Positions 14,990 to 30,092 of a DNA stretch of 64,000 nucleotides are shown here, piece after piece. The notes below the pieces were generated by a model, which had not been told where the DNA came from, did not search any database, and was given only the letters and a program-made list of their open reading frames with translations. Source of the DNA: Candidatus Latescibacterota bacterium (GTDB taxonomy: Bacteria; Krumholzibacteriota; Krumholzibacteriia; WVZY01; JAKEHA01); the NCBI GenBank assembly GCA_963707635.1, contig OY970173.1, forward strand, positions 1,824,001-1,888,000. The letters run 5' to 3'. Position 1 is the stretch's first letter. Each line of letters starts with the position of its first letter. Both the position numbers and the translations under genes were made by a program.

Positions 14990-16028
14990 ACTCTGGTTCG
15001 GCATCGTCGCCGTGATGCTCACGATGTACGTGGTGATGGACGGCTTCGACCTCGGCGCGGGCGTGCTCCACCTCCTGGTGGCCCGGACCAACGAGGAGCG
15101 CCGGCAGGTGCTGGCCGCTATCGGCCCGTACTGGGACGCGAACGAGGTATGGCTCCTGGCCACCGGCGGCGCGCTCTTCGTCTCGTTTCCAAAGGTGCTC
15201 GCGTCGGGTTTGTCCGGGTTCTACTTCGCCATCTTCCTGGTGTTGTGGTGTCTGATCCTGCGCGGTGTGTCCGTCGAGTTCCGCAGCCACGTGGTCGCGC
15301 CGATGTGGCGATCGTTCTGGGACGCGACCTTCGCGCTCGGGAGTACGCTCCTGTGCGTCTTTTTCGGTTGCGCGCTCGGCAATCTGCTGCGCGGGCTGCC
15401 GCTGGACGAGAACGGGTGGTTCGGTCTCGCGCTCTTTACCGACTTCTCCGCGCGCATGCCGGTCGGAATCCTCGACTGGTACACGGTGCTGGTCGGTGTC
15501 TACGCGCTGGCGGCGTTGGTGATGCACGGCGGCGCCTATCTGTGCTGGAAGACGGAAGGAACGGTGCTGGACCGAAGCCGCCGCCTGGCGCTGCGCGCGG
15601 CCGTGATCGTGGCGGCGCTGTGGCCTCTAATGACGGTGCTCACCGTGCGCATGAATCCCGCCATGTTCGAACAGTTCGCGCGGCGCCCGCTGGCGTGGGC
15701 GTGCGCGGCGATCGCCCTGGTCGGGTTGGTGGCCGTGCTGACTGGACTTCGACGCGGCGCGTACCGCCGGGCATTCCTGGGTTCGTCGGCGTTCCTGCTG
15801 GGGCTGATGGCGGCGACGGCGGCATCGATCTTCCCGGTCATGCTGCGCGGTCTGGCCGACGGGGGGCCGTCGATCACTGCGTTCGACGCGGCCAACGACG
15901 CGCACGGGTTGGGCGTGGCAATCCGCTGGTGGCTGGTTGGGATTCCGCTGGTGGTGGCGTACTTCGCGATCCAGTTCCGCGTGCACGGCGGCAAGGCGGC
16001 GGTGTCTCCCGAGGGAGAAGGGTACTGA
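14982..16028 (+). CDS. cydB: Cytochrome bd ubiquinol oxidase subunit II
   Basis: YVVMDGFDLGAG, IGPYWDANEVWL, LILRGVSVEFR; overlaps end of cydA. Confidence 0.95.
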   Translation: MVELWFGIVAVMLTMYVVMDGFDLGAGVLHLLVARTNEERRQVLAAIGPYWDANEVWLLATGGALFVSFPKVLASGLSGFYFAIFLVLWCLILRGVSVEFRSHVVAPMWRSFWDATFALGSTLLCVFFGCALGNLLRGLPLDENGWFGLALFTDFSARMPVGILDWYTVLVGVYALAALVMHGGAYLCWKTEGTVLDRSRRLALRAAVIVAALWPLMTVLTVRMNPAMFEQFARRPLAWACAAIALVGLVAVLTGLRRGAYRRAFLGSSAFLLGLMAATAASIFPVMLRGLADGGPSITAFDAANDAHGLGVAIRWWLVGIPLVVAYFAIQFRVHGGKAAVSPEGEGY

Positions 16029-16157
16029 CGGTTGCGTACCCGCGATGCTTGACGCAGCGTGTCCGATTTGCTTAGTCTCGCACCCAGTCCGGCGCAATCG
16101 AACACCCGAGACGCCGACTCTGGCCGCTATCCGCTGGGAACCGTGGAGGCCCCATCC

Positions 16158-16997
16158 ATGCTGACCACCCGCGTTACGGTTGCGTTGCCCGCCCTGATGT
16201 TCTCAGTCATGCTCGCCTGCTCGTCCTCGCCGCCGCCGCACGAGGGCTCGTCGTTGAGTCAAGCCGCGGATGAGGCGAAAAAGTCCGACGAAGAAAAGAA
16301 AAAAGCGCTCACGGCCACTCCGAAGGAAGAGCAGGAACACGCTCCCGCAGTGGTCGCGGCCACCACGACAGCCGCGGTGGTAGATGCAACGTCACCCGCG
16401 GACTCGTCGGCGCCGGCCCCGATCCCGTCGGACTCCGGCGAAGATATCCGCGCGATGGTGAGCCTTTTCGCCGGGGGCGGTGGGCTCGGGAGCGAGGACT
16501 TCGACGGGTTCGGAGTGTTCGGGGTCGGATTGGGGTTTCGTGTGGAGGAGCGAGTGCGCGTGGGGCTTTCGTTTCTCTACATACCGACCCAGCTCACGGA
16601 GAACAGCGGCGTGGTCGACGCTCTGACGGACGAAAAGGAAGTGGCGCTCGACGTGTTCCTCCGGTACTACTTCACCCCCGCTCACACCTTCGCTGGATTG
16701 TACGGAGTGATCGGTGGGCGCGCGGGGTGGTTGATGTGGAACTACGCGAACGACATCACGGTCGTGGACGAAAACGGCAATCCACGCACGCTCGAAGACG
16801 ACCGGCTCACGTACTACGCCGGTTATCTGGGGGTGGGAGTGGCGCCGGTGCAAACCGAGCACATCACGCTCGGCGTCGATCTCGACGTGGGGCTCAAGAC
16901 CTTCGAGAGCTACACCAGCGAAGGCTTCAACCAGGACCTCTTCGATGATTTCATCGAGTTCACGCAACTCCAGGTCAGCGTCGACTATCGATTCTGA
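16158..16997 (+). CDS. Hypothetical lipoprotein with C-terminal outer-membrane beta-barrel-like domain
   Basis: Lipobox VMLA-C, low-complexity linker, alternating hydrophobic strands, terminal VDYRF; GGAGG SD. Confidence 0.6.
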   Translation: MLTTRVTVALPALMFSVMLACSSSPPPHEGSSLSQAADEAKKSDEEKKKALTATPKEEQEHAPAVVAATTTAAVVDATSPADSSAPAPIPSDSGEDIRAMVSLFAGGGGLGSEDFDGFGVFGVGLGFRVEERVRVGLSFLYIPTQLTENSGVVDALTDEKEVALDVFLRYYFTPAHTFAGLYGVIGGRAGWLMWNYANDITVVDENGNPRTLEDDRLTYYAGYLGVGVAPVQTEHITLGVDLDVGLKTFESYTSEGFNQDLFDDFIEFTQLQVSVDYRF

Positions 16998-17000
16998 TCG

Positions 17001-20000
17001 CTAGTGAAAATCCCGGCCGCGCACGGGCGCGGGCGAACGCAGCGTCTCCGGCTCCCAGAGCGACTCCGCCACCACGTGCACGACGTTCGACTCGCGCTGG
17101 ATTTTTCCGGTCACGCCGAGGAACGACGACGTTTTTGCGAGCAGTGCATACCGGTCAAACACATCCTGCCATAGCACCACGTTCACGAATCCGGTCTCGT
17201 CTTCCATGGTCATGAAGACCACGCCCTTCGCGGTCGATGGCCGCTGGCGCACGATCACGAGCCCGGCGTAGCGCACGCGCCGGCCGTTGGGCAGCGCGGC
17301 GACCGCGCGCGCGTCGGGGAGTCCGATCGCGGTGAGGGTCGCGCGCAGGGGTCCCAACGGGTGCCCGCGCGGGCTGTGCCCGGTGGTCTCGTAATCCCAC
17401 GCGACCGTCTCCAGTTCCGTGAGCTCGCGAAACTCGACCGGCGCCTCGCCGCCGTCGAGCGGTAACGGCGGCGGCGCGAGCGACCCCGTCGCTGCCCACA
17501 GCGCGTCACGGCGTCCGGGCTCCAGCGCCTCGAACGCCCCCGCTTCCGCCAGCCGCGCGCGCATGCGCTCGTCGAGGTCCGATCGCTGGACGGCGTCCTC
17601 GACGGATACGAACGCGCGCTCGCGCCGGGCCGCGAGAATGCGCGCGGCCTGCGACTCCGCGAGCCCCTTCACGTAACGAAGCCCCATGCGCAGCGCGTAG
17701 GAGCGAACGCCCGTGTCGCCGGGGTGGCGCCGGCCCAGCGTGCGCAACGACTCCGGCGCGCTTACCAGCGTGCAATCCCACTCGCTCGCCTGCACGCACA
17801 CCGGCAGCACCCAGAGGCCGTGCCGCTTGGCGTCGTCGACGATGGTCGCGGGGGAATAGAAGCCCATCGGTTGCGCGTTCAGGAGCGCGCACGTGAACGA
17901 ATCCAGATAGTGACGCTTGAGCCACGCGGACACGTAGGCGATGAGTGCGAAGCTCGCCGCGTGACTCTCGGGGAAGCCGTAGTCGCCGAAGCCGCGAATC
18001 TGCTCGAACACCCGCTCGGCGAATTCCGCCTCGATGCCTTTCGCGCGCATGCGCGAGACGAGCTTCTCTTTGTGACGCTCGAGCCGGCCGCTTCGCCGCC
18101 ACGCCGCCATGTCGCGGCGCAGCTGGTCCGCCTCGCCGGGGGTGTAGTCGGCCGCCACGACGGCGAGCTTCATCACCTGCTCCTGAAACAGGGGGACGCC
18201 GAGGGTCTTTTTGAGCACAGGTTCCAGGCACTCATGCGGATAGACGACCGCCTCTTCGCCGTTTCGCCGGCGCAGGTACGGGTGCACCATGCCGCCCGTG
18301 ATGGGTCCGGGCCTCACGATGCTAACTTCAATAACCAGATCGTAATAGTTGCGCGGCTTCAAGCGGGGCAACATGGCCATCTGGGCCCGGCTTTCGATCT
18401 GGAACACCCCTACCGTATCGGCGCGGCGGATCATCTCGTAGGTGGGTTCGTCGCCGTGGGGGACGTTCGCCATCGTGAGCCGCTGGCGGTGGTGGTTTTC
18501 GATCAGGTCGAAGGCGCGGTTGACCACCGTGAGCATTCCCAGCCCCAGCAGGTCCACCTTGAAGAGGCCAATCGCCTCGAGGTCGTCCTTGTCCCACTGG
18601 ATCACGGTGCGGTTCTCCATGGTCGCATTCTCGATGGGCACCAGGTCGCGCACGGGCTCGTGCCCGAGCAGAAACCCGCCCGGGTGGATCGAGAGGTGGC
18701 GCGGGAAATCCTGGATCTCCGCGGCGAGTCGCACCAGGTGCAGGTGTGCCGGGGACTCCACGTCGAAGCCGGCGCGCGCGAGCGCGGCGGGCGAGAGGTC
18801 GTCGTAGTACGAGAGCAACCGCGCCACGCGGTCCAGGGTGGTGTCGGGAACGTCGAGCACTTTGCCCACGTCACGCACGGCCGAGCGCGCGCGGTAGCGC
18901 ACCACGTTGGCCGCCATGGCGGCGTGCGTGCGTCCGTACTTCTGGTAGACCCACTGGATCACTTCCTCGCGGCGGGCGTGCTCGATGTCCAGGTCGATGT
19001 CGGGCGGCTCCGCGCGTTCTCTCGAAATGAAGCGCTCGAACAGGAGATCCATCTGCACCGGGTCGACGGCGGTGATCCCGAGGCAGTAGCACACCGCGGA
19101 ATTCGCCGCCGACCCGCGGCCCTGGCAGAGAATGCGGTGCTGGCGGCAGAACTGCACGATCTCGTACATGGTGAGGAAGTAGCCTTCGTACTCGAGGTCG
19201 TGGATGACCTCGAGCTCCCGCTCCAGCTGTGCGGTGGTCTCGCGGGGAATCCCGGCCGGAAAGCGCTCGCGCGGGTAGCGCGCCGCGGCGCCCTCGAAGG
19301 TGAGCCGGCGCAGGTGCTCGCGCGACGTGGTTCCGTCGGGGAGCGCTTCGAGGGGGTAGCGGTAGCGAATGTCGCCCAGCGAGAACGTGCAGCGCGCGGC
19401 GACTTCCTCGGTGCGCGCAATGGAGGCCGGGTCGTCTTCGAAGAGCAGGCTGAACGCGTACGGCGAACGAAGCGCGTGCTCGGCGTTGGGGCGCGTGAGG
19501 CGGCCCGCGGTGGAGAGGGTGACGCCGTGGCGGATGCAGGTGAGCACGTCCTGAAGATCCCGCCGGGCAATGCTGTGGTAAAGCACCTCGCCGGCGGCGA
19601 CGGTGGGGACGCGAAAGCGCGCGGCGCGTTCGCGCACGCGTTTCTCGGTGGCGACGTCCTCCGCGCGGCGGTGACGGGTGATCATCGTGTAGAGCCGGTC
19701 CCCGAAGGCATCCTTGAGGTCGCGCGCCACGAAGACGGGGTCGGTGACGCCCGCGACGAGGCTCCCGTCGCCGCCCCAGAGCGCGATCACCCCGTCCGCG
19801 CGCTCGCACACCTCGCGCCAGCGCACCACGCACTCGCCCTTGGGGGACCGAAGCCGCCCGTCGGAGATCAGATTGCACAGGTTCGCGTAGCCGCGCCGGT
19901 CGAGCGCCAATAGCGTGACGTGCGACCCGTCCTCCATGGTGACTTGTGCTCCCGTGACGAGATGAATCCCGAGTTCGCGCGCCTTGACGAACGCGCGCAC

Positions 20001-20162
20001 GAGGCCGTAGACGCCGTCGCGGTCGGTGAGGGCGAGTGAGTGGATGCCGAGGCGCGCGGCTTCTTCCACCAGTTCGTCCGGGTGGCTCGCGCCTTCGAGG
20101 AAGGAGAAGTTGGACTTACACCAGAGGGGAGCGTAGGATGCGAGAGAAGAGAGGCGATTCAC
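17001..20162 (-). CDS. dnaE2: Error-prone DNA polymerase III alpha subunit DnaE2 (ImuC)
   Basis: [15 protein letters not shown] start, [35 protein letters not shown]-terminal GRDFH motif; start GTG 20162 (ATG 20171/20174 coincide with the -10 box). Confidence 0.95.
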
Positions 20163-20169
20163 ACTCCGC

Positions 20170-20198
20170 ATCATAGCAGACAAATGTCTTGTCTGCAA
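20170..20198 (-). promoter_or_regulatory. Sigma70-type promoter of dnaE2 containing a candidate LexA box
   Basis: Minus strand TTGCAG-N17-TATGAT with TG extension; near-palindrome AGACAAATGTCT (20178-20189) in the spacer. Confidence 0.7.
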
Positions 20199-20239
20199 GC
20201 GGGTCGACGACGCCGACTCCATTCGAAAGGACGGGCCCG

Positions 20240-21595
20240 GTGCCCTTCAGCAATTTCAAACTTCACCCCAATCTTCTCAGCGGGCTCAAGGACCTCGGAT
20301 TCACGCGCCCGACGCCGATCCAGGCCGAAGCCATTCCTCCCGGCGTCGAGGGGCGCGACATCCTCGCGTGCGCCATGACCGGCAGCGGCAAGACCGTCGC
20401 CTTCCTCCTGCCGATTCTCCACCACCTGATCGGCAAATCGCGCGGCACCACGCGCGCGCTCGTGCTCACCCCGACCCGCGAGCTGGCGGCGCAGATCCTC
20501 GAGGACTTGAACGACGTCGCCGTCCACACGCCGATCAACGGCGCCGCCGTCTACGGGGGCGTCGGAATGGGACCGCAGGAGCACGCGATCCGCAGCGGCG
20601 TGGACGTCATCGTCGCCACCCCCGGTCGCCTGCTCGATCACTTCGGGTACCCGTACGCCAAACTGAGCGGGCTCGAATTCCTCGTGCTCGACGAAGCGGA
20701 CCGCATGCTCGACATGGGGTTCTTGCCGGACATCCGCCGCATCCTGCGCCACATCCCGAAGCGCCGGCAGACGCTGTTCTTCAGCGCGACCATGCCCGCG
20801 CCAATCGCCGACCTCGCCCGCCAGATGCTCCACAACCCGGTGACGATCAACCTGGCGCGTCAGAGCGGGCCCGCGGTCGGCATCACGCAGGCGGTGTACC
20901 CGGTTTCGCAGGAACTGAAGGCCGCGCTGCTCGCCTCGCTCCTCGATCGCGGCGACCTGAAAGACGCGCTCGTCTTCACCCGCACCAAGCATCGCGCCGA
21001 CCGGGTTGCGCACTATCTGGTCAAGTGCGGGATCGCGGCCGAGCGCATCCATGGCAATCGCTCGCAGAACCAGCGCACGCTCGCCCTGGCGGGTTTCAAG
21101 AGCGGCAAGCACCAGGTGCTCGTCGCCACCGACATCGCCGCGCGCGGGATCGACGTCGAAGCGCTGGGGCACGTCGTGAATTTCGACGTGCCGAAGGCGC
21201 CCGAGGACTATATCCACCGGGTCGGCCGGACGGCGCGCGCCGAGTTGACCGGCGAGGCGTTCACGTTCGTGTCGCCCCAGGAGGAAGCGGACCTCGCCCG
21301 AATCGAGCGCGCGATCCACAAGCGGCTCCCGCGGATCACGGTTCCGGACTTCGACTATCGGGCGCGGCCCGAAGCGCGGCTGGAGCAGTCGAGCGCGGAG
21401 CGCCGCGCGGTGGGTCGCGCGAACCGGGGGCCGAGCGGTGGGCGCGGGCGCCCGAAGTCGGGAGGCCGTCCCCGGGGGACGCCGGGACCGTCCCGTCCGC
21501 ACGCGCCTGCATCCTCGCCGTCGACGCCCGCACGTGCCGGGGCGGGGCCGTCGCGCCAGCCACGCCGATCGCGCCGCAAAGGACGGAGCTGGTAG
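20240..21595 (+). CDS. DEAD-box RNA helicase (RhlE-like)
   Basis: [37 protein letters not shown]; basic C-terminal tail; GAAAGGA SD before GTG. Confidence 0.93.
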
Positions 21596-21619
21596 ACGAC
21601 TCCCGCCCGAAAAACAGGG

Positions 21620-21663
21620 TTGACGCGGGACCCCGCCGGGCATATAGTTGTTAGTGCCAACTA
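21620..21663 (+). promoter_or_regulatory. Sigma70-type promoter with overlapping candidate MarR operator
   Basis: TTGACG-N17-TATAGT; inverted repeat TAGTTG-N7-CAACTA at 21645-21663 over the -10/+1 region. Confidence 0.7.
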
Positions 21664-21670
21664 GGAGGCC

Positions 21671-22231
21671 ATGATGCCAACCAGGACAGCCAGATCGAGT
21701 GGTGTGGCGCCGGGTTCGACCCGGCGGGGCAACCGGGTGCACGCGGGGCGGAACCCTATCGATCGCGACGCCCGTGACCTGTACGAGGCCCTCACCGACC
21801 TCGTGCGTCTCTATCAGTTCCGGGATCGCAATGTCATCTGCTGCCACGACGTCTCCGTGACCCAGTGCTACGCGCTCCAGTCGCTGGTTCGCGGCGGCGC
21901 GATGACGCTCGGCGCGCTGGCGACCGAGCTCTATCTGGACAAGAGCACCGCGAGCCGGGTCGTGGAGGCGCTGGAGCGCAAGGGGTACGTGCGGCGGGCA
22001 CCGCACCCCGAGGACGCCCGCGCGATCCAACTGGTCGCTACGGCGCGGGGGAAGAGTCTCCACGCGGGTATCGAGGCGGCCCTGCTGGACGAGGAGCGGC
22101 GCCTCATCGCCGGGCTTTCGCCCGAGGTGCGCAAGGCGGCGACGGGGCTGATCCGCGACCTCGCGCGCGCGACGGCCAAGCGGATGGACGTGAACGCGCC
22201 GGGTTGCTGCGCGGGAACGTGCGCATCCTGA
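21671..22231 (+). CDS. MarR-family transcriptional regulator, Cys-rich (putative arsenic-responsive)
   Basis: wHTH LDKSTASRVVEALERKGYVRR...DAR; CCHDVSVTQC and C-terminal GCCAGTC; AGGAGG SD; directly upstream of arsM. Confidence 0.88.
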   Translation: MMPTRTARSSGVAPGSTRRGNRVHAGRNPIDRDARDLYEALTDLVRLYQFRDRNVICCHDVSVTQCYALQSLVRGGAMTLGALATELYLDKSTASRVVEALERKGYVRRAPHPEDARAIQLVATARGKSLHAGIEAALLDEERRLIAGLSPEVRKAATGLIRDLARATAKRMDVNAPGCCAGTCAS

Positions 22232-22255
22232 CGTTTTTTATTTTTTTGCATAACT

Positions 22256-22270
22256 GTTGCTACTGACAAC
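22256..22270. promoter_or_regulatory. Second candidate MarR operator upstream of arsM
   Basis: GTTG-CTACTGA-CAAC, same arms and 7-bp spacing as the site at 21647-21661; preceded by an AT-rich tract. Confidence 0.65.
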
Positions 22271-22288
22271 CAATACGAGGAGTAGGCG

Positions 22289-23182
22289 ATGAATCATCCA
22301 TCGATGGAAAGCGGCGCGTGCTGCGAGGGCAATTGCGCCTGCAATAATGAGCCGGTGAAGGAAGGGGCGCGGCCCGAGGCATCCGCCGAGATTCGCGCGG
22401 CCGTCCGCGAGCGCTACGCGAGCGCGGCGCGCGAGGTCGCGCGTGGTGGGCCGGGGTGCTGCGGGGACGCGTGCGGGTGTACGGACCCGGTAAGCGACAA
22501 CCTGTACGCTCCCGAGGAGATCGCCGGTCTTCCGGAGGCGGTGGTGCGGGCGTCGCTCGGCTGCGGCAATCCCACGCTGCTCGCCGATCTCGACGAGGGC
22601 GAGACGGTGCTGGACCTCGGCTCCGGCGGCGGGATCGACGTCCTGCTCTCGGCGCGCCGCGTCGGACCGGGAGGATTTGCGTTCGGCCTCGACATGACCG
22701 ACGAGATGCTCTCCCTCGCGCGCGACAACCAGCGGAAGTCGGGCATGTCCAACGTCGAATTCCTGAAGGGAGAAATCGAAGCCATCCCGCTCCCCGACGA
22801 CCACGTCGACGTGGTCATTTCCAACTGCGTGATCAACCTGTCGGCGGACAAACCCAAAGCGCTACGCGAGGCGTTTCGGGTGCTGAAACCCACGGGGCGC
22901 TTCGCGGTGAGCGACATCGTTGTGCGCAAGCCGCTCCCGGCGACGGTTCGGCGCGACGCCGAGCTGTGGGCCGGCTGCATGGCAGGCGCGCTCGAGGAGT
23001 GGACGTATCGCGGCCTGTTGGAGGAAGCGGGCTTCGTCGACGTGGAGATCGTCCCGACGCGGGTCTACACCCGCGAGGACGCGCGCTCGCTCATGGCGGG
23101 GTCCGGATTGAGCGCGGAGGATCTCGACGCGGTCGACGGGGCCTTCATGAGTGCGTTCGTTCGGGCGCGTAAGCCCGAATGA
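22289..23182 (+). CDS. arsM: Arsenite S-adenosylmethionine methyltransferase
   Basis: ASLGCGNP, VLDLGSGGGID, GLDMTDEML, ISNCVINLS, WAGCMAGAL; Cys-rich N-terminus. Confidence 0.92.
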   Translation: MNHPSMESGACCEGNCACNNEPVKEGARPEASAEIRAAVRERYASAAREVARGGPGCCGDACGCTDPVSDNLYAPEEIAGLPEAVVRASLGCGNPTLLADLDEGETVLDLGSGGGIDVLLSARRVGPGGFAFGLDMTDEMLSLARDNQRKSGMSNVEFLKGEIEAIPLPDDHVDVVISNCVINLSADKPKALREAFRVLKPTGRFAVSDIVVRKPLPATVRRDAELWAGCMAGALEEWTYRGLLEEAGFVDVEIVPTRVYTREDARSLMAGSGLSAEDLDAVDGAFMSAFVRARKPE

Positions 23183-23225
23183 ACGGTGACGACCAAAGAC
23201 ACGGAATACCGAAGGAGGTGGAGCC

Positions 23226-23288
23226 ATGAAGATCAACTCGTGCGGTTGCGGATGCGGTGGTGGTTGCGGCTGCGGCGGCGGAGACTAG
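23226..23288 (+). CDS. Small Cys/Gly-rich peptide MKINSCGCGCGGGCGCGGGD (metallothionein-like), absent from ORF track
   Basis: AAGGAGGTG SD 5 nt before ATG 23226; 20 codons to TAG 23286-23288; 5 Cys; just downstream of arsM. Confidence 0.65.
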   Translation: MKINSCGCGCGGGCGCGGGD

Positions 23289-23348
23289 TGGATCGACCGG
23301 GCGACGGCCCCGCGGGAGCGAATGCATCGCCGTCGCCCCGGTCGCCAC
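23288..23348 (+). terminator. Strong GC hairpin after the small peptide (terminator or 3' stabiliser; no U-tract)
   Basis: CGACCGGGCGACGGC (23294-23308) pairs with GCCGTCGCCCCGGTCG (23329-23344, one bulge), extended by GTGG/CCAC. Confidence 0.5.
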
Positions 23349-23427
23349 CCCTCTCTCCGGTGTGGCGCTGGCATGTTGGGCCGGGGTCTGATAAACTCGC
23401 CGCAACGGCCATGGTTTTCTCCCATCC

Positions 23428-24183
23428 TTGAAGACAATCTTCGACATCGGCATGTACGACGGGACGGACACCGCCTACTACCTGGAGAGTGGATACCGGG
23501 TGGTCGCCGTCGAGGCGAATCCGCTGCTGGTGGAACGCGCGCACGCGAAGTTCGCACCCCAGCTCGCGTCGGGTCAGCTTGTGTGTGTCAACGTGGCCGT
23601 CGCGGCCCGGGCCGAGCCGGTCGAATTGACCGTCAGCGGCGACGACCTCGGCTCGAGCTCGATCGTGAGCGGCAAGGTGGCGGACCGGCGTCCGATCGGG
23701 TCGATCACCGTGCAGGGGAGGACGATGCAGGAGTTGTTTGCGCAGCACGGCGTGCCGTACTACATGAAAGTCGATATCGAGGGCGCGGATCGGCTGTGCG
23801 TGCTCGGGCTCACGCCCACGGCCCGGCCGGACTACGTGTCGTTCGAAATCGGCGACGACGTCGAGGAACTGATCGCGCACGCGCAGACGGTCGGCTTGAC
23901 GCGCTTCAAGATCATCAACCAGGTGTGTCTGCGCGAACTGGCTCACGAGCGAAGCTTTTCCGACCGGGCGGTGCTGCGGCTGATGCGCCAGCTGGGGTAC
24001 GCGCAACCCCGCCTGATCCGGAGGGACAGCCGGTTTTTTTCGGCCGGTCTGTGCTCGGGTCCGGTGCCCTGGAAGACCGACGGCCGGTGGCACACCGGTG
24101 CCGAGACGATTTCGCGCTGGCGCACGGCGAAAGTCGCGAACGCCGGGTCTGCCTGGTACGACATCCACGCCGCCGTCGCCTGA
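23428..24183 (+). CDS. FkbM-family methyltransferase
   Basis: IFDIGMYDG, VVAVEANP, MKVDIEGAD; TTG start. Confidence 0.8.
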   Translation: MKTIFDIGMYDGTDTAYYLESGYRVVAVEANPLLVERAHAKFAPQLASGQLVCVNVAVAARAEPVELTVSGDDLGSSSIVSGKVADRRPIGSITVQGRTMQELFAQHGVPYYMKVDIEGADRLCVLGLTPTARPDYVSFEIGDDVEELIAHAQTVGLTRFKIINQVCLRELAHERSFSDRAVLRLMRQLGYAQPRLIRRDSRFFSAGLCSGPVPWKTDGRWHTGAETISRWRTAKVANAGSAWYDIHAAVA

Positions 24184-24198
24184 CGGGCGCCGCAGGGC

Positions 24199-25698
24199 TC
24201 ATTCCACTTCTCCGTGGATGAACCAGCTCATGCGCCGGCGGTCGTAGAACATCCACAGCGCGCGGCCGTTCGAGGTGCGGACGAAGTAATATTCGCGCTG
24301 CACCTCGCGCGACCACCAACCCCCCGACACGATATACGGCCCCAGCGTTTCCCGCACCGTCCCCTCGTCGATGTGGCGGATCAACTCCGCCTCCGCCTGG
24401 CGGTGACGGCCCGGCGAGAAGGGAAGCGGCCGGGCGTAGATTCGCCGCACGAGCGGAGGCGTGCGCACCGCGCGCGGTTTCGGCGGCGCCACCGACGCGA
24501 CCGGTTCCCAGTCGAAACGGGCCTCGGGGAGGTGCGCGTCGCGGAGCACGGCCTTGACGACGGCGCGGTCGCCCAGCTCGGCGCGCACGCGCGCCATCGC
24601 CCGCGCGGCGGCGGCGACGTCGCGCACCGCGCGGGCCGCGAACAGATCGGCCTGCACCTGCGACGCGGCCACGCCTTCCACTTCGACGCGCGCGGCGGTC
24701 ACCCCGCGAGCGTGCGCCTTCGACGCCAGCGTTCCGCCCAGGCGCAGCCGCACCAGCTCGACGATCTGCGCGAGCTCGAGCGTGGGCGACGCCGGTTGCA
24801 ATCCCTCGGTTGTTTTCGTCCCATCGTCGAAACCAAGTTCGATCGCGACCGCGCGCAAGACCTCGCCGCGCTCGTCCAGCCGCCGCGCGAGCGATTGCAG
24901 CTCGCGGTCGATTACGACCACGAGGCGATCCAGATTCGTCTCCGGGTCGTCGAGGTGCACCGACGAGACGAGCGGTTCGCGCGGCGCGCGCGGCTGCAGG
25001 GGGGCAGAGAGCTCCCCCTTCGCGGTCCGGTAGAGACGGTGTGCGGTTTCGCCGAAGCGCGTGCGGATGCCGTTGCCGGGCAGCGCCAGAAAGCCGGCGA
25101 GCGTCGTGATGCCGAGGCGGGCGAGCGTGTCGCGAAGCTCGGGCGAAACGCCGAGGCGGGAAAGCTCCACCGTGCCCGCGCGCTCGCGTTCATCGGTTTC
25201 GCTGTTGACGACATGGATGCCGTTGTCCGCCGACGCGTTGGCGATCGCATAGGTGCCAAAGCGCGTGAAGCCGACGACGATCGACGCGTGGAATTCGGCG
25301 CGCGCGATCTCTTCGTGCACGAGGCCGGCCCAGCGGCGCAGCGACGGATACAATAGAGACAGCCCCGACGCGCCGAGCCAGAACACGCCCGGCTCCGCGT
25401 CCGTGGGCTCGACCTCCGGCGTGTAGAAGCGCAGCGACTCGGTCAGCCGGTCGATTTCGGATTTGATTTCCGCCGCGGGCACTTCACCCGCGCGCAGGCC
25501 CGGAGCGAGCGAGAGGGCGGCGGCGTAACGAAGGCCGGGAAGGACGCGACTCGCCCGCGCGCGTTCGTTCGACCAGAGCACCACACCCTGCGCCGCGTCG
25601 CGGTCGACGACCGCGACCGGGTGTTCACTCCAGGCGGGGTGCGTGCGCAGGAGGAGCTGGAGGGGAAACTCCGGGAGATTCAGACACGCGAGGCGCAC
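24199..25698 (-). CDS. imuB: ImuB, catalytically inactive Y-family polymerase
   Basis: Y-family-like N-terminus lacking the catalytic acidic residues, YTPEVE, LARLGITTL, C-terminal GGWW...REYY...LWMFYD; cassette context. Confidence 0.88.
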   Translation of the reverse strand: MRLACLNLPEFPLQLLLRTHPAWSEHPVAVVDRDAAQGVVLWSNERARASRVLPGLRYAAALSLAPGLRAGEVPAAEIKSEIDRLTESLRFYTPEVEPTDAEPGVFWLGASGLSLLYPSLRRWAGLVHEEIARAEFHASIVVGFTRFGTYAIANASADNGIHVVNSETDERERAGTVELSRLGVSPELRDTLARLGITTLAGFLALPGNGIRTRFGETAHRLYRTAKGELSAPLQPRAPREPLVSSVHLDDPETNLDRLVVVIDRELQSLARRLDERGEVLRAVAIELGFDDGTKTTEGLQPASPTLELAQIVELVRLRLGGTLASKAHARGVTAARVEVEGVAASQVQADLFAARAVRDVAAAARAMARVRAELGDRAVVKAVLRDAHLPEARFDWEPVASVAPPKPRAVRTPPLVRRIYARPLPFSPGRHRQAEAELIRHIDEGTVRETLGPYIVSGGWWSREVQREYYFVRTSNGRALWMFYDRRRMSWFIHGEVE

Positions 25699-25705
25699 AC
25701 GCGCA

Positions 25706-26035
25706 TCACCGGGGTGGCAGCGTACTCACGAAGTCCAGGCTGCGATGGATCCAGCGCAACAGAGCCTGGTCGGACTCGTATCCCTCGCGCGCGATGTAGA
25801 CGAACCCCGTGAGCGGCCGGCCGGTGAAGTCCATCGGGCGCGCGTGGGGTTCCTGGAGCGCCTCCTGGTAGGCGTGCGGCCCCACGCGCACGACGAGGTT
25901 GTCCTCGATCACCCCGCAGCACATGTGCCCGTCGAGCATGAAGGCGGCGCCGCCGAACATCTGGCGCTCCGTGAGTCCACGCGTGTGCTTGAGCGTGCTG
26001 CGAATCCTGCTGGCGGTTTTCTCGTTGAAGGTCAT
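25706..26035 (-). CDS. TfoX/Sxy N-terminal domain protein
   Basis: ERQMFGGAAFMLDGHMCCGV, LVVRVGP, RPMDFTGRPLTGFVY. Confidence 0.85.
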   Translation of the reverse strand: MTFNEKTASRIRSTLKHTRGLTERQMFGGAAFMLDGHMCCGVIEDNLVVRVGPHAYQEALQEPHARPMDFTGRPLTGFVYIAREGYESDQALLRWIHRSLDFVSTLPPR

Positions 26036-26144
26036 GGCATCCTTTCATCGCGCATCGCGGGTCCCTTCCGCTCATGCACTCGCGCGCGAACGTTGAAAGC
26101 GCGCCTCGTGAAATCGCGTCAGAGACCCGCGACGCGCCCCATAA

Positions 26145-26789
26145 CTAATGCAGCCCTTCCGGGCCGCGGCATGATTGCACGTGGCTCCAGCCCGGGCCGC
26201 GTCGCTTGTCCTTGATGACGTGGATCTCCCACGCGAACCGATCAAAGTCTTCCCGGGTGACGTTCGTTTCGCCCCGAATCGAAACCAGCGAGCCGATGGA
26301 CGGTGCGTCACCGGCCTTGCGTGTCAGGCACACCACCGCGCAGCGGTGCGCGTTGGCGAGCCCCGCGAGCCGGCTCTGGACCGACATGCGCAGGTGCGAA
26401 TCCGCCGCCAGGTCCAGCACCACGATCGCGAAGCTGCCGGAGCGCAAGAGGTGATCCGCCGCGCGCGCCGCCTGGGTGGAGCCGTCCGCGCGGACGACGA
26501 CCAGCGCGTCGAGATCAACTCCGGACGCGGCGACATCCGGGGGATAGAAGCTCGATTCTCCGGTTGCGATCCACACCGACGGCTCGCCGGCGTGTTGCGC
26601 TTCGAGCACGAGCGAGGTCGCCGCGGTGAGCGAAGCGCTCATGGTCGCGCTCGATAATTCCACCATCCGACCCGCCAATGCCTCCAGCGTCCATTCGGGA
26701 GAGGAGGGAGTCCCGGCCGGGCCCTGACGGATACCCAGCCGGGACAGCACGTGGGTCAGTGGTGCGGAGGAGAGAACGTTGAGGCTCAT
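26145..26789 (-). CDS. imuA: ImuA/RecA-like protein with degenerate Walker A
   Basis: GRMVELS..., FYPPDVAASGVDLDALVVVR, ADHLLRSGSFAIVVLDL; lies between lexA and imuB. Confidence 0.8.
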   Translation of the reverse strand: MSLNVLSSAPLTHVLSRLGIRQGPAGTPSSPEWTLEALAGRMVELSSATMSASLTAATSLVLEAQHAGEPSVWIATGESSFYPPDVAASGVDLDALVVVRADGSTQAARAADHLLRSGSFAIVVLDLAADSHLRMSVQSRLAGLANAHRCAVVCLTRKAGDAPSIGSLVSIRGETNVTREDFDRFAWEIHVIKDKRRGPGWSHVQSCRGPEGLH

Positions 26790-26914
26790 GGTCAGTGCTC
26801 ATTGCCTCGAAAGACCGTTGGTGTTTCCGGCCCGCGCGACCGTGGCGCCCCTCGCCGTAAGTGGTGTGGGAGGAAGGGGCGAGGGACGCCCGTCGCGTCA
26901 CGCGGTTGCCGTAA

Positions 26915-27553
26915 CTAGTCCAGGTATCGACGAACCTCGATCACCTTGCCGAGAATCTTGCACTCGCTCGGGTCGAGCACGATCGGCTCGAAGGCCGGGT
27001 TTTCCGGCTGTAGCACGATCTTCCCGCGACGATGCCGCAGCGTCTTCACGGTGGCCTCGTCGCCGACCAGGGCAACGACGGCGTCACCCTGGTCGGCGGT
27101 TGGTTGGGCCCTGACAATGACGATATCGTCGGGAAGGATGCCGATTCCGGTCATGCTTTCGCCGCGCACGCGCAGCGCGAAGAGCGATTCGCTCCCGGCG
27201 CGGCGCCGGCCGCGTTGCACGGGGACCATGCCTTCACGATCCTCGATGGCGGCCTGGAGATTTCCGGCCTGGATGTGACCGACGAGGGGGGCGAAGACCG
27301 TCGGCCGCGCGTAGTCGACACTCGACTCGGGCAGTGAATACCCACGCGCGCGCGCTTTGTAGTCGCCCTGATTCTTCAACAGGCGTCCTTCGGCGACCAG
27401 CTGCTCGAGGTGCGCCTGCGCCGTCTGCACGGCTTTGAATCCGAACCTCGCCTGCACTTCACGAACCGTCGGCGGTTTACCTTCGAGCAGCCGGTCGCGC
27501 ATAAACTGGTAGATCGATTCCCGGGTTTCGCCTGGAGGGGTTTTGGGAGACAT
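26915..27553 (-). CDS. lexA: LexA repressor
   Basis: PPTVRE HTH, GHIQAG cleavage site, LRVRGESM (Ser), EATVK (Lys), LQPENP. Confidence 0.93.
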   Translation of the reverse strand: MSPKTPPGETRESIYQFMRDRLLEGKPPTVREVQARFGFKAVQTAQAHLEQLVAEGRLLKNQGDYKARARGYSLPESSVDYARPTVFAPLVGHIQAGNLQAAIEDREGMVPVQRGRRRAGSESLFALRVRGESMTGIGILPDDIVIVRAQPTADQGDAVVALVGDEATVKTLRHRRGKIVLQPENPAFEPIVLDPSECKILGKVIEVRRYLD

Positions 27554-27629
27554 GCCGGTTCCTTCCTGCTCCGGGCGGGTGTTCGGGCGCGTCACCGTGG
27601 CGCGCCAGCCCGTCCGATCTGGTGAGCAC

Positions 27630-27658
27630 AGTAAACAGACAATTGTCTTTTTTGGCAA
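27630..27658 (-). promoter_or_regulatory. lexA promoter containing a candidate LexA box
   Basis: Minus strand TTGCCA-N17-TTTACT; perfect palindrome AGACAATTGTCT (27637-27648) in the spacer. Confidence 0.7.
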
Positions 27659-27718
27659 GAGGGTTTATTTTGGGGTCCGTCGGAGGGTAAGGTACGAGGG
27701 GTTGGGGAGCGTCTATCA

Positions 27719-28234
27719 ATGTCACTGACGGCCGACGATATCCGGCGCCTGCTTCGGCTCGAGCCGCTTGCGGAAGAGGGGGGTCTCTTCCGGGAAATAT
27801 ACCGGTCCGCGCTGATGCTGCCGGCGGCGGTGCTGCCGCCATGGTACCGGGGGGAGCGCAACGCCAGCACCGCGATCTATTATCTCCTATCGCCGGGTGA
27901 GTTTTCCGCGCTGCACCGGGTGCGCGGCGACGAGGTGTTCCACTTCTATCTCGGCGGCCCGGTCGAGATGCTCCAGCTGTTTCCCAACGGGACCAGCCGC
28001 GTGGTCGTAATCGGCACGGATATCCAAAGCGGCATGCAGCCGCAGGTCGTGGTGCCGGGCGGCGTGTGGCAGGGGTGTCGTGTGGTCGGGGCACAATTCG
28101 CGCTGATGGGGACGACGATGTCTCCCGGATTCGACGCGCGCGACTTCGAGTTGGGGGAGCGCGCGGCGTTGATCGACCGCTACCCGCAACAGAGCGAAAT
28201 GATCACGGCGCTGACCCGGACGCAAGAAACTTGA
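27719..28234 (+). CDS. Cupin_5 (DUF985) family protein
   Basis: EGGLFREIYRS, STAIYYLL, SALHRV..DEVFHFYLG, QVVVPGGVWQ, PGFD. Confidence 0.88.
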   Translation: MSLTADDIRRLLRLEPLAEEGGLFREIYRSALMLPAAVLPPWYRGERNASTAIYYLLSPGEFSALHRVRGDEVFHFYLGGPVEMLQLFPNGTSRVVVIGTDIQSGMQPQVVVPGGVWQGCRVVGAQFALMGTTMSPGFDARDFELGERAALIDRYPQQSEMITALTRTQET

Positions 28235-28317
28235 CGGCGTCTATCACGCCCTGGACGATCGTTCCAGGGATTGAATCCGTGGTATCGTGCCGCTCAATGT
28301 ACACAGGGAGTTTCAGC

Positions 28318-28785
28318 ATGAGAGAAATCGAGCGGATTGCCGAACTGGTTGCGTCGGGCTATCGCGACGGCGCCTGGCCCGGTGTGTCGGTGCGGGAGGT
28401 CCTGAGAAGTCTCTCGGCCACGGAGGCGTCCGCCCACCCGGTGGCCGGCTGTCACAGCGCATGGGAGATTGCGCTGCACATCTCCTTCTGGCACGACGCC
28501 GTGCGCCGGCGGCTGGGGGGAGATCCCGTCGACTGTGGGGACGACGAGGACTGGCCGGTGCCCGCCGCACCGACGCCCGCGAACTGGCATGCCGTGCTCG
28601 AAGAGATGGATGCGGTCCACCAGAGGCTCGTCGACACCGTCCGGACATTGAACCCCGACATACTGGACCGGCCGTCGCCCGGGAAGACATTCACCGTCTA
28701 TTTCATGCTGCATGGAGTCCCGCAACACGACCTGTACCACGGAGGCCAGGTCGTGCTGCTCAAGAAAGCGAGTCATTCCGCGTGA
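28318..28785 (+). CDS. DinB-family protein
   Basis: HSAWEIALHI, QHDLYHGGQ. Confidence 0.85.
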   Translation: MREIERIAELVASGYRDGAWPGVSVREVLRSLSATEASAHPVAGCHSAWEIALHISFWHDAVRRRLGGDPVDCGDDEDWPVPAAPTPANWHAVLEEMDAVHQRLVDTVRTLNPDILDRPSPGKTFTVYFMLHGVPQHDLYHGGQVVLLKKASHSA

Positions 28786-29285
28786 ACACCAATGACATTT
28801 CCACTCTCTACGCCTACAACCGCTGGGCGAATCGTCGCACGCTGGGATCGGTGCGGCCGCTCGACCATGAGGAGTTCACCCGCGACCTCGGCACCAGCCA
28901 CGGCTCCATCCGCGGAACGCTCGTTCACACGATGTGGTCCGACTGGATATGGCTGCGGCGGTGGCACGGCGAGTCGCCGAAGCGGTCGCCTTTCGACCCC
29001 AACGAATTTGCCGACCTCGCGGCCGTCGAAACGTACTGGCAGGGACTCGAACGCGAGCGGGAGGGTTTTATCGACCGCTTGACGGATCAGCGCCTCCAGG
29101 AGTCGCTCACCTACGAGAACCTGAAGGATGAACGGTGGACCTACACGTTCGAGCATATGCTGCAGCACGTGGTCAACCACGCCTCTTATCATCGCGGCCA
29201 GATCGTCACGCTCCTGCGACAACTCGGACGCACGCCGACGTCGACCGATTTCCTCGAGTTCTTTGACGAGGCCGGAGCCACGTAG
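28782..29285 (+). CDS. DinB-family protein (B. subtilis DinB type)
   Basis: YNRWAN, SIRGTLVH, HVVNHASYHRGQIVTLLRQLG; GTGA overlap. Confidence 0.88.
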   Translation: MNTNDISTLYAYNRWANRRTLGSVRPLDHEEFTRDLGTSHGSIRGTLVHTMWSDWIWLRRWHGESPKRSPFDPNEFADLAAVETYWQGLEREREGFIDRLTDQRLQESLTYENLKDERWTYTFEHMLQHVVNHASYHRGQIVTLLRQLGRTPTSTDFLEFFDEAGAT

Positions 29286-29303
29286 ACAGACGCAGGCATA
29301 GCC

Positions 29304-30092
29304 GTGACGGAGAAACGAAAGCGGTCCGCAGTGCGCCGATGGATTCGATGGGCGTTCCTGTTTTGGGCTGTGGTCTCGACCGCGTGGCTCGCAAACTCGT
29401 TTCGCACCCGAGGGGTCGGCGACGACAAGCTGCAGAGTAGCGCGACGGTCTCCGTGGTCGACGGAAAGGCGTGCCTGGAGTTCTCGCCCATGTCGCCGGG
29501 CACTGCGTCCGCGTTGATCTTCTTCTGCGGCTCCGGCGTCTCGGCACGCGCGTACGCGCCGCTGGTTCGCCCGATCGCGGAAGCCGGGTATCCAGTCTTC
29601 GTGGTCAAGTTGCCTTATCGTTTTGCGCCGCTTGAATCAAACAAGCGAGCTGCGGTGGACCGCGCCCTGCATGTGATCGCGCAGCATCCCCGGATCCCGG
29701 CATGGGTGGTGTCGGGACATTCGCTTGGCGGGGCACTGGCCTGCCGCCTGGTGCAGACCGACCCCGACGCGGTTTCAGCGATGGTGCTGGTCGGCACGAC
29801 GCACCCGAAGGACGAGGATCTGTCGCGCCTTCGATTGCCGGTCACGAAAGTCTACGCCTCGAACGATGGCATCGCACCGCCGGAGCGAGTCCGCGCGAAT
29901 CAGGCGTTGCTTCCGGCCCACACGAAATGGGTCGAGATCGAAGGAGGCAACCATTCACAGTTTGGCTACTATGGTCACCAGCTCCTGGATGGCACAGCGA
30001 CCGCCAGTCGGGAGGCGCAACAGGAGATCACCCGCTCCGCGTTGCTCGCGGCGCTCGCCGAAGCCGGGGGCTTCGGAGTGTTGAATCCATGA
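29304..30092 (+). CDS. Alpha/beta hydrolase with N-terminal anchor
   Basis: GHSLGG nucleophile, ND, IEGGNHSQFGYYG. Confidence 0.85.
   Translation: MTEKRKRSAVRRWIRWAFLFWAVVSTAWLANSFRTRGVGDDKLQSSATVSVVDGKACLEFSPMSPGTASALIFFCGSGVSARAYAPLVRPIAEAGYPVFVVKLPYRFAPLESNKRAAVDRALHVIAQHPRIPAWVVSGHSLGGALACRLVQTDPDAVSAMVLVGTTHPKDEDLSRLRLPVTKVYASNDGIAPPERVRANQALLPAHTKWVEIEGGNHSQFGYYGHQLLDGTATASREAQQEITRSALLAALAEAGGFGVLNP

Follow-up and report, generated by a model that had tools for sequence, protein, structure and literature searches.

The marR-arsM unit ends in a very small gene

The window analysed here is a stretch of 64,000 nucleotides (nt) from Candidatus Latescibacterota bacterium (GCA_963707635.1, contig OY970173.1, positions 1,824,001 to 1,888,000), in which a MarR-family repressor gene (marR) and an arsenite methyltransferase gene (arsM) are followed by a very small open reading frame (ORF) rich in Cys and Gly and by a GC-rich hairpin (Table 1). 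This ORF and its product, the micro-peptide, are the subject of this report. G000 denotes the source genome, and the other G and L numbers denote the genomes and loci compared with it.

The ORF starts with ATG at 23226, 43 nt downstream of the arsM stop codon, and comprises 20 codons (MKINSCGCGCGGGCGCGGGD) closed by TAG at 23286-23288. Five of its 20 residues are Cys (residues 6, 8, 10, 14, and 16) and nine are Gly, the codons of which are a mixture of GGT, GGA, and GGC. A preliminary description of this DNA had reported a Shine-Dalgarno (SD) sequence, an ATG, a 20-codon Cys/Gly ORF, and a hairpin behind marR-arsM, all of which were confirmed in the window. Among 1632 SD-preceded ORFs of 10-60 amino acids (aa) in G000, two reached at least 4 Cys together with at least 15% Cys, and the Cys plus Gly fraction was 0.70 in the micro-peptide as compared to 0.35 in the other. 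When all six frames of the 3.2-Mb genome were read, the micro-peptide was the sole run of at least eight Cys or Gly residues containing at least three Cys, and it occurs as a single copy.

None of eight family peptides looked up in a collection of 15 billion proteins was present there, which bears out the earlier expectation that gene callers would miss such a gene. The NCBIfam profiles gave no match with three family peptides, and a Pfam search at E-values up to 1 with eight peptides gave one chance match under the cut-off; no profile of SmtA/BmtA (PF02069) or of any curated family matched the micro-peptides over the cut-off. In a metatranscriptome check, one dataset contained 0.06 of the words. 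A 178-nt contig of the RNA set (depth 3.5) matches 23221-23384 apart from 10 differences and a 6-nt insertion that keeps the frame; since all 30 of the 30 bins of window positions 15000-30000 were covered in this set, the reads may stem from DNA or other organisms, and no inference on transcription is drawn from them.

Table 1. Features of the ars unit and its 3' neighbour (window coordinates)
Feature	Position	Strand	Basis or remark
Sigma-70-like promoter (TTGACG, 17 nt, TATAGT)	21620..21648	+	-10 overlaps box 1
Operator-like inverted repeat GTTG-N7-CAAC, box 1 (predicted MarR site)	21647..21661	.	Matrix scan
MarR-family repressor with C57, C58, and C179	21671..22231	+	PF12802 and PF01047 over cut-off
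Operator-like box 2, between marR and arsM	22256..22270	.	Matrix scan
arsM, arsenite methyltransferase with Cys-rich N-terminal extension	22289..23182	+	NF008823
SD sequence of the micro-peptide gene, AAGGAGGT	23212..23219	+	Window reading; spacing kept in relatives
20-aa Cys/Gly micro-peptide gene, MKINSCGCGCGGGCGCGGGD and stop	23226..23288	+	ORF reading; conservation in genus
GC-rich 3' hairpin without U-tail	23288..23348	+	Probable transcript end or 3' protection
FkbM-family methyltransferase	23428..24183	+	3' of hairpin, outside the unit

The micro-peptide gene is maintained as a coding sequence within one genus

A Cys/Gly peptide of 18-23 aa ending the MarR unit was found in 15 of 17 genomes of one genus of Ca. 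Krumholzibacteriia, and 9 of 80 metagenome marR loci yielded further copies, three of which were duplicates. The 21 distinct coding sequences (CDS) are 57-72 nt long, every length being a multiple of 3, and end in TGA (11), TAG (8), or TAA (2). An SD core lies 5-7 nt from the start in all 23 loci, while the upstream stop and the peptide start are between -4 and 104 nt apart; at five loci (G006, G010, G014, L154, and L156), the start codon and the arsN2 stop overlap. Across 20 loci, identity was 0.82, 0.91, and 0.58 at codon positions 1, 2, and 3, and 0.62 in the SD zone, but fell to 0.29 on the 5' side and 0.33 on the 3' side. Of 1185 pairwise differences counted over the final nine codons, 715 were at the third position, and 553 synonymous codon differences were counted against 344 non-synonymous ones in 190 pairs; these two counts are descriptive, since the pairs are related. 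The micro-peptide ORF is a gene, and selection acts on it as coding DNA. The preliminary description had argued for coding rather than slippage from the varying Gly codons, and this argument now extends to third-position variation, in-frame lengths, three types of stop codon, and unconserved flanks across the family. A slippage repeat was ruled out by the codon pattern, and selenocysteine read-through by the interchange of stop codons.

Over the 21 CDS, the family consists of 25% Cys and 39% Gly with less than 1% Tyr. Each member carries four to seven Cys, clustered as CC or CxC on either side of a Gly spacer, and it is the composition that is kept, not the order; the peptides of G008 and G015 contain CCGGGCC.

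In a MarR tree holding 35 of 38 intended rows (three were dropped by a motif filter), the carriers fall into one clade of 24 rows with support of 100/98, which also includes G007 and L150, two loci where the peptide is missing. Both branches of the deepest split in this clade contain carriers. Since the carriers form one clade with G007 and L150 inside it, the family is old within the genus and was probably lost once or twice. As for the remaining genome, G016, its contig ends inside arsM. A pattern scan of 185,579 genomes, which missed 4 of 14 known copies other than that of G000, returned 40 loci: 10 were in-frame peptides with SD and ATG, all of this genus, and in the other 30 the match was out of frame, usually in the Cys/Gly tail of a long protein (of four such proteins scanned, one was a TIGR04222 protein and one a SlyD-like isomerase under the cut-off). 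A relaxed pattern gave no match in G007, G016, and seven genomes of other genera, with G013 as positive control.

A three-Cys MarR regulator and two operator-like boxes precede the micro-peptide

The promoter upstream of marR agrees with the sigma-70 consensus at 10 of 12 positions, and two such sites were found where 0.2 were expected from shuffled sequences. In a scan with an operator matrix built from 26 sites of relatives, box 1 was the top site of G000 (31.9 bits) and box 2 the second (25.2 bits), while the strongest site outside the unit reached 13.8 bits; strong GTTG-N7-CAAC sites occur in G000 just twice, at 21647 and 22256. The same repeat precedes both marR and the effector gene in most of the fetched marR loci, which belong to several lineages. 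From this arrangement, GTTG-N7-CAAC is put forward as the candidate operator of MarR_ars.

According to the accessible text of Yu et al. (bioRxiv 10.1101/2021.08.12.456183), As(III)/Sb(III) releases the Achromobacter repressor MarR_ars, whose Cys triad is C36, C37, and C157, from DNA, and MarR_ars genes adjoin ars genes such as arsN and arsV. In the window regulator, the MarR fold carries a Cys pair followed 121 residues later by a C-terminal Cys, as against 120 residues in MarR_ars; this likeness is one of spacing. C57, C58, and C179 are invariant across 30 aligned homologues, and regulators of this type adjoin arsM, arsN2, arsN1, an ArsO-like monooxygenase gene, and arsC, as MarR_ars-type regulators do. 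The MarR was present in 32 of 208 genomes of the phylum, and a plasmid search gave three MarR matches. Five MarR relatives lacking the Cys pair (L243, L245, L247, L250, and L253) retain the same box and are followed by a gene for ca. 315 aa, which we take to resemble MsrP.

The gene upstream of the micro-peptide varies

The product of arsM in the window scored 340.6 bits against NF008823 (cut-off 263), which identifies it as ArsM. Among the 15 carriers, the gene upstream of the peptide is arsM in three (frameshifted in G013), an arsN2::arsM fusion in eight (two of them split over contigs), and arsN2 alone in four. arsN2 is a named clade left uncharacterised in the accessible text of PMC6465285. 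No arsM ortholog was found in the four carriers with arsN2 alone (81-92% complete), whose best match lay at 1e-11 to 1e-13, while carriers with arsM gave an ArsM match of 1e-77 or better. In two of the eight fusion carriers, an M28 peptidase gene stands between the fusion and the peptide, and arsC flanks several family loci. The operator-like box lies directly 5' of the peptide SD in G012, as does a box with one mismatch in L151. The only gene common to all 15 carriers besides that of the peptide is marR. Since the upstream gene varies and the downstream gene is not constant, the peptide appears to be an output of the MarR unit rather than the partner of a single enzyme or a leader.

Elsewhere in G000, an acr3 gene without the box and a BshC-like gene under the cut-off were found. 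No gshB over the cut-off and no SmtA-type metallothionein (positive control detected) were present in G000, and phytochelatin synthase (PF05023) was not found there, the control genomes giving no match either.

Several variations of the effector genes were observed. In G013 (C6:9503-10385), arsM is split by the frameshift, and the peptide gene behind it is intact. ArsN2::ArsM fusions of ca. 410-470 aa occur in many Krumholzibacteriia (e.g. L116:3794-5155, L143:2851-4254, and L139:1163-2386). M28-family peptidases are found in the MarR_ars units of several Krumholzibacteriota (L128, L129, L130, L133, L134, L135, L137, L120, and L144); these ars-associated peptidases often have a signal-like N-terminus, and that of G015 carries a Cys-rich insert.

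The 3' hairpin and the surroundings of the unit

The hairpin at 23288-23348 has a folding energy of -39.1 kcal/mol (z -2.57), and 4 of 200 shuffled sequences folded equally well. Since it has no U-tail and a terminator scan found no site, it is not a classical intrinsic terminator. A z value below -2 was obtained at 15 of 20 family loci (median -3.4), where the structure is a plain hairpin of unconserved sequence. The loops of eight loci (G002, G003, G006, G010, G011, G014, L154, and L165) contain a self-complementary hexamer, GGGCCC or GGCGCC, which possibly forms a kissing loop.

Downstream of the peptide, eight of the 15 carriers have a convergent gene for a Y-family polymerase-like protein and the other seven have four different same-strand genes; a CAAX-protease-like gene (PF02517) lies 3' of the peptide in four carriers, and the FkbM-family neighbour is present only in G000 and L145. 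The minus-strand genes at 17001-20222, 24199-25698, 26145-26789, and 26915-27658 resemble, as named by sequence reading, a lexA-imuA-imuB-dnaE2 mutagenesis cassette, broken up by the ars unit, an RNA helicase gene, and the FkbM gene; the relative of imuB gave weak DNA polymerase IV matches only. The two genes that flank the ars unit in the window also enclose it in most relatives.

Short CC-containing ORFs also follow regulators in other lineages

At 143 marR loci, the position behind box 2 was occupied by a long ORF in 72, was open in 13, could not be scored in 52, and held a short ORF in six, five of which contain CC. Two loci, L169 and L186, consist of marR, box, peptide, and hairpin without an enzyme gene; their peptides (32 and 30 aa) end in GGGCCGG(I)GGCC and have GCCGGGGCC in common with some genus peptides. 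Because of the low complexity, no homology between the two types is claimed. A profile made from L169 and L186 gave 20 matches, of which three were proteins of 30-32 aa and 17 were long proteins with partial repeats. The L169 peptide is present letter for letter in the ESM Atlas, which gave no usable match.

A second family of 16-17 aa, designated PRVAHCCEGA, occurs in 11 of the 201 genomes examined around G391 (class of G208), with no match among reversed-pattern controls; its members include L238, L241, L273-L280, L282, and L283 (e.g. L279:1486-1575). The count of 11 includes G599, which was set aside here. Of 10 loci, two have the peptide directly after a MarR box, two after a box and a methyltransferase gene, and four after an ArsR/SmtB gene scoring over the cut-off; in the remaining two, it follows a similar unscanned ORF in one and the other has no assignment. 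About 4 nt past the stop codon of these peptides lies a candidate H-type pseudoknot (alignment columns 71-103; L279:1538-1566), drawn by eye from the same nine sequences in which 83.8% of cells are paired and 5 of 11 pairs show two-sided changes. L276 has a plain hairpin in its place. Rfam gave no match to the candidate pseudoknot in the two loci searched; over four loci, it gave seven matches, all below the gathering score and none at the peptide ends.

Cys-rich stretches were also seen as parts of larger proteins. A 30-aa Cys-rich ORF at L215:4538-4630 matches the Cys-rich ArsM extension of the near-identical loci L226-L228 in its 5' region and N-terminus; it looks like the remnant of a deleted arsM and was rejected as functional support. 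A 56-aa CC-rich ORF at L224:737-907, followed by a gene for a SigZ-type sigma factor, resembles the Cys-rich N-terminus of the ArsO-like monooxygenases of L209-L213, by fission or fusion. Many long proteins of several phyla (L045-L083, e.g. L060:2585-4057 and L065:3314-4066) end in GGCGGCGGGD like the peptide, an ending for which the search pattern itself selected. Viral contigs gave 10 pattern matches, none beside marR, and none with the PRVAHCCEGA pattern; an SD-ATG-CCGG pattern had no match in 401 genomes of the phylum of G208.

Possible function of the micro-peptide

On balance, we lean towards the reading that the micro-peptide is an inducible micro-metallothionein which would bind As(III), Sb(III), or methylarsenite. 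The metalloid would release MarR from boxes 1 and 2, and the peptide would then be translated in quantity, owing to its strong SD sequence, from a shared transcript ending at the hairpin. In the flexible Gly chain, three thiols could close on As(III) and two on methylarsenite, which would give a capacity of one or two atoms per chain. As a stoichiometric buffer, the peptide would work alongside the upstream enzyme and not through it, and by lowering the free inducer, it would allow MarR to reset. A three-Cys pseudopeptide is reported, in the accessible text of PMC10155180, to bind As(III) as AsS3 with a Kd of 5.5 µM. Conservation of composition under a varying order of residues fits a chelator better than a docking partner or a protein interface.

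Several points weigh against this reading. The number and spacing of the Cys residues are not specific for arsenic, and Cu, Cd, Zn, and Hg would bind too. As(III)/Sb(III) is a predicted ligand of the window MarR, by analogy with MarR_ars. The peptide is missing from the intact locus of G007 (87% complete) and from L150, and no peptide was seen in the fetched stretch at 16 of 16 MarR genomes of the phylum outside the genus, several contigs of which end early; its absence from G007, L150, and most other MarR loci indicates that the unit works without it. G000 also has efflux at its disposal through the acr3 gene mentioned above. An unfolded peptide of 2 kDa may be short-lived, and the capacity of a stoichiometric sink is small. 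The PRVAHCCEGA family has two Cys only, and to judge from the sequences, the other short CC peptide families are not established as homologous to the genus peptide. L215, while pointing to a possible route of birth, also indicates that not every ORF in such a slot is functional.

Among the alternatives, a low probability is given to a mainly regulatory peptide, which would tune or reset the MarR switch, or whose translation near the 3' structure would set transcript stability. Units reduced to a regulator and a peptide (L169, L186, L238, L241, and four ArsR units), the restriction of the G000 regulon to a single unit, and the constant presence of a structured 3' end after the peptide, with a covarying pseudoknot candidate in the PRVAHCCEGA family, are in its favour. 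Against it, a loop without further output would serve little purpose if the peptide itself gave no protection, the residues vary too much for a protein interface, and the 3' element of the genus family is a plain hairpin of unconserved sequence.

A slightly lower probability is assigned to a peptide serving the upstream enzyme, as an As(III) chaperone or thiol reductant for ArsM or ArsN2. The presence of arsM in 11 of 15 carriers, CCGG/CGCGGGD segments of similar kind in ArsM N-termini, the lack of gshB over the cut-off in G000, and the start-stop overlap with arsN2 at five loci would suit such a partner, but four of 15 carriers have no detectable arsM, ArsM orthologs outside the genus and in G007 do without the peptide, and no enzyme is common to all carriers. 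The preliminary description had offered a chelator, chaperone, or reductant for ArsM and had suggested a search downstream of arsM orthologs. Conservation was found in the genus but not at the 16 MarR loci of the phylum outside it, so the peptide is not a general arsM partner. The chelator is retained here as the best reading, whereas a chaperone or reductant dedicated to ArsM has become less likely because four of 15 carriers have arsN2 without an arsM that could be found and because similar peptides stand alone behind regulators.

We consider it improbable that the peptide is a general soft-metal or redox buffer (for Cu, Cd, Zn, Hg, or disulfide exchange) which is under MarR control by coincidence. 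Four to seven Cys in CC and CxC clusters would suit metal-thiolate sites in general, like tails occur on a SlyD-like isomerase (L064) and a TIGR04222 membrane protein (L060), and the ArsR/SmtB regulators preceding PRVAHCCEGA peptides have no assigned ligand. Against this, all carriers in the genus have the peptide behind arsM or arsN2, arsC flanks several of them, and the three-Cys pattern of MarR matches the type reported to sense As(III)/Sb(III).

It is very improbable that the ORF is a slippage repeat or a functionless leftover of a Cys-rich ArsM N-terminus. L215 is such a leftover, the peptide was lost in G007 and L150, and the ArsM of L166 contains CGCGGGD ahead of its DPI motif; the codon-position pattern, the interchange of stop codons, and the genus-wide conservation of the SD sequence speak against a remnant, as do the occurrence of the peptide in both basal branches of the MarR clade and its coexistence with an intact arsM. 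An origin from a Cys-rich ArsM segment is possible; lack of function is unlikely. Least probable of all is a precursor of a ribosomally synthesised and post-translationally modified peptide (RiPP) or a leader peptide attenuating the following gene. In favour of these could be cited the short N-terminal part before a Cys/Gly core, the CAAX-protease-like gene that follows the peptide in four of the 15 carriers, and the M28 peptidase gene that precedes it in two; the RiPP was rejected because no maturase is shared by the carriers, and the leader because no constant same-strand gene lies downstream, so that there is nothing to attenuate.

If the micro-metallothionein reading is extended to the other lineages, sequestration by ribosomal micro-metallothioneins of 16-32 residues may be an overlooked third arm of arsenic defence, recruited several times behind MarR_ars and ArsR/SmtB regulators, born in part from Cys-rich ArsM extensions, and sometimes the sole output of the sensor; we advance this wider view tentatively, as something short of an even chance. 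The family is known from one uncultured genus, and its function is deduced from context and composition. Bacterial ars units are usually described as a sensor plus efflux or an enzyme, and ars inventories miss genes below 30 codons.

Comparison with known systems

The MarR_ars units (bioRxiv 10.1101/2021.08.12.456183) have the same Cys pair with a C-terminal Cys ca. 120 residues on, beside ars genes; the accessible part of that paper names no small peptide and no operator sequence, whereas in the window family arsM, arsN2, or their fusion is followed by the micro-ORF. No description of such a peptide was found in the literature searched, most subscription journals and the bioRxiv supplements being outside reach.

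A thiol-sensing repressor with a small Cys-rich gene product is the layout of SmtB-SmtA. Metallothioneins in the broad sense are small and gene-encoded, with ca. 20-30% Cys in CC/CxC and few aromatic residues. They bind several metal(loid) ions through thiolates and are induced through a sensing repressor. The composition of the 21 CDS agrees with this definition; such induction may apply to the peptide, whose gene is preceded by that of a three-Cys MarR and by two operator-like boxes. The family matches no curated family and, judged by analogy, likely has a metallothionein-like layout under a thiol-sensing repressor. It differs from SmtA, MymT, and BmtA in being Gly-rich, in its MarR regulator, and in a metalloid rather than Zn/Cd/Cu context. 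MymT is a small gene-encoded bacterial metallothionein (PMC11672702), and MymT/BmtA have 45-80 aa (PMC13519478), so that the family peptides with 18-23 aa are about half their size, going by the accessible text of both sources. If the reading holds, the peptide would be a sink of ca. 2 kDa for As(III)/methylarsenite, smaller than these 45-80 aa bacterial metallothioneins, and the first such sink tied to a MarR-type metalloid sensor, as far as the literature was searched.

Phytochelatins are likewise short flexible poly-thiol peptides which bind As(III) and soft metals; they are made from glutathione by phytochelatin synthase, as far as the accessible text of PMC9917255 goes, whereas the window peptide is ribosomal, of Cys-Gly type, and without Glu. 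The term phytochelatin-like, used in the preliminary description, holds as an analogy and fails for the mode of synthesis, since phytochelatins are enzymatic products and the window peptide is gene-encoded. Endings of the peptide type, CGGGD or CGCDD, also occur in TIGR04222 membrane proteins and SlyD-like isomerases, but there the Cys/Gly stretch is the tail of a protein of 200-490 aa and not a free peptide.

The tetracysteine tag CCPGCC binds trivalent organoarsenic through dithiols. Its plan, CC-spacer-CC, is that of CCGGGCC in G008 and G015; the tag is engineered and has a two-residue spacer, while the family is natural, has spacers of three to four Gly, and contains many CxC. The natural variants, which extend from CC-GGG-CC to (CG)6, constitute a ready series for thiol spacing.
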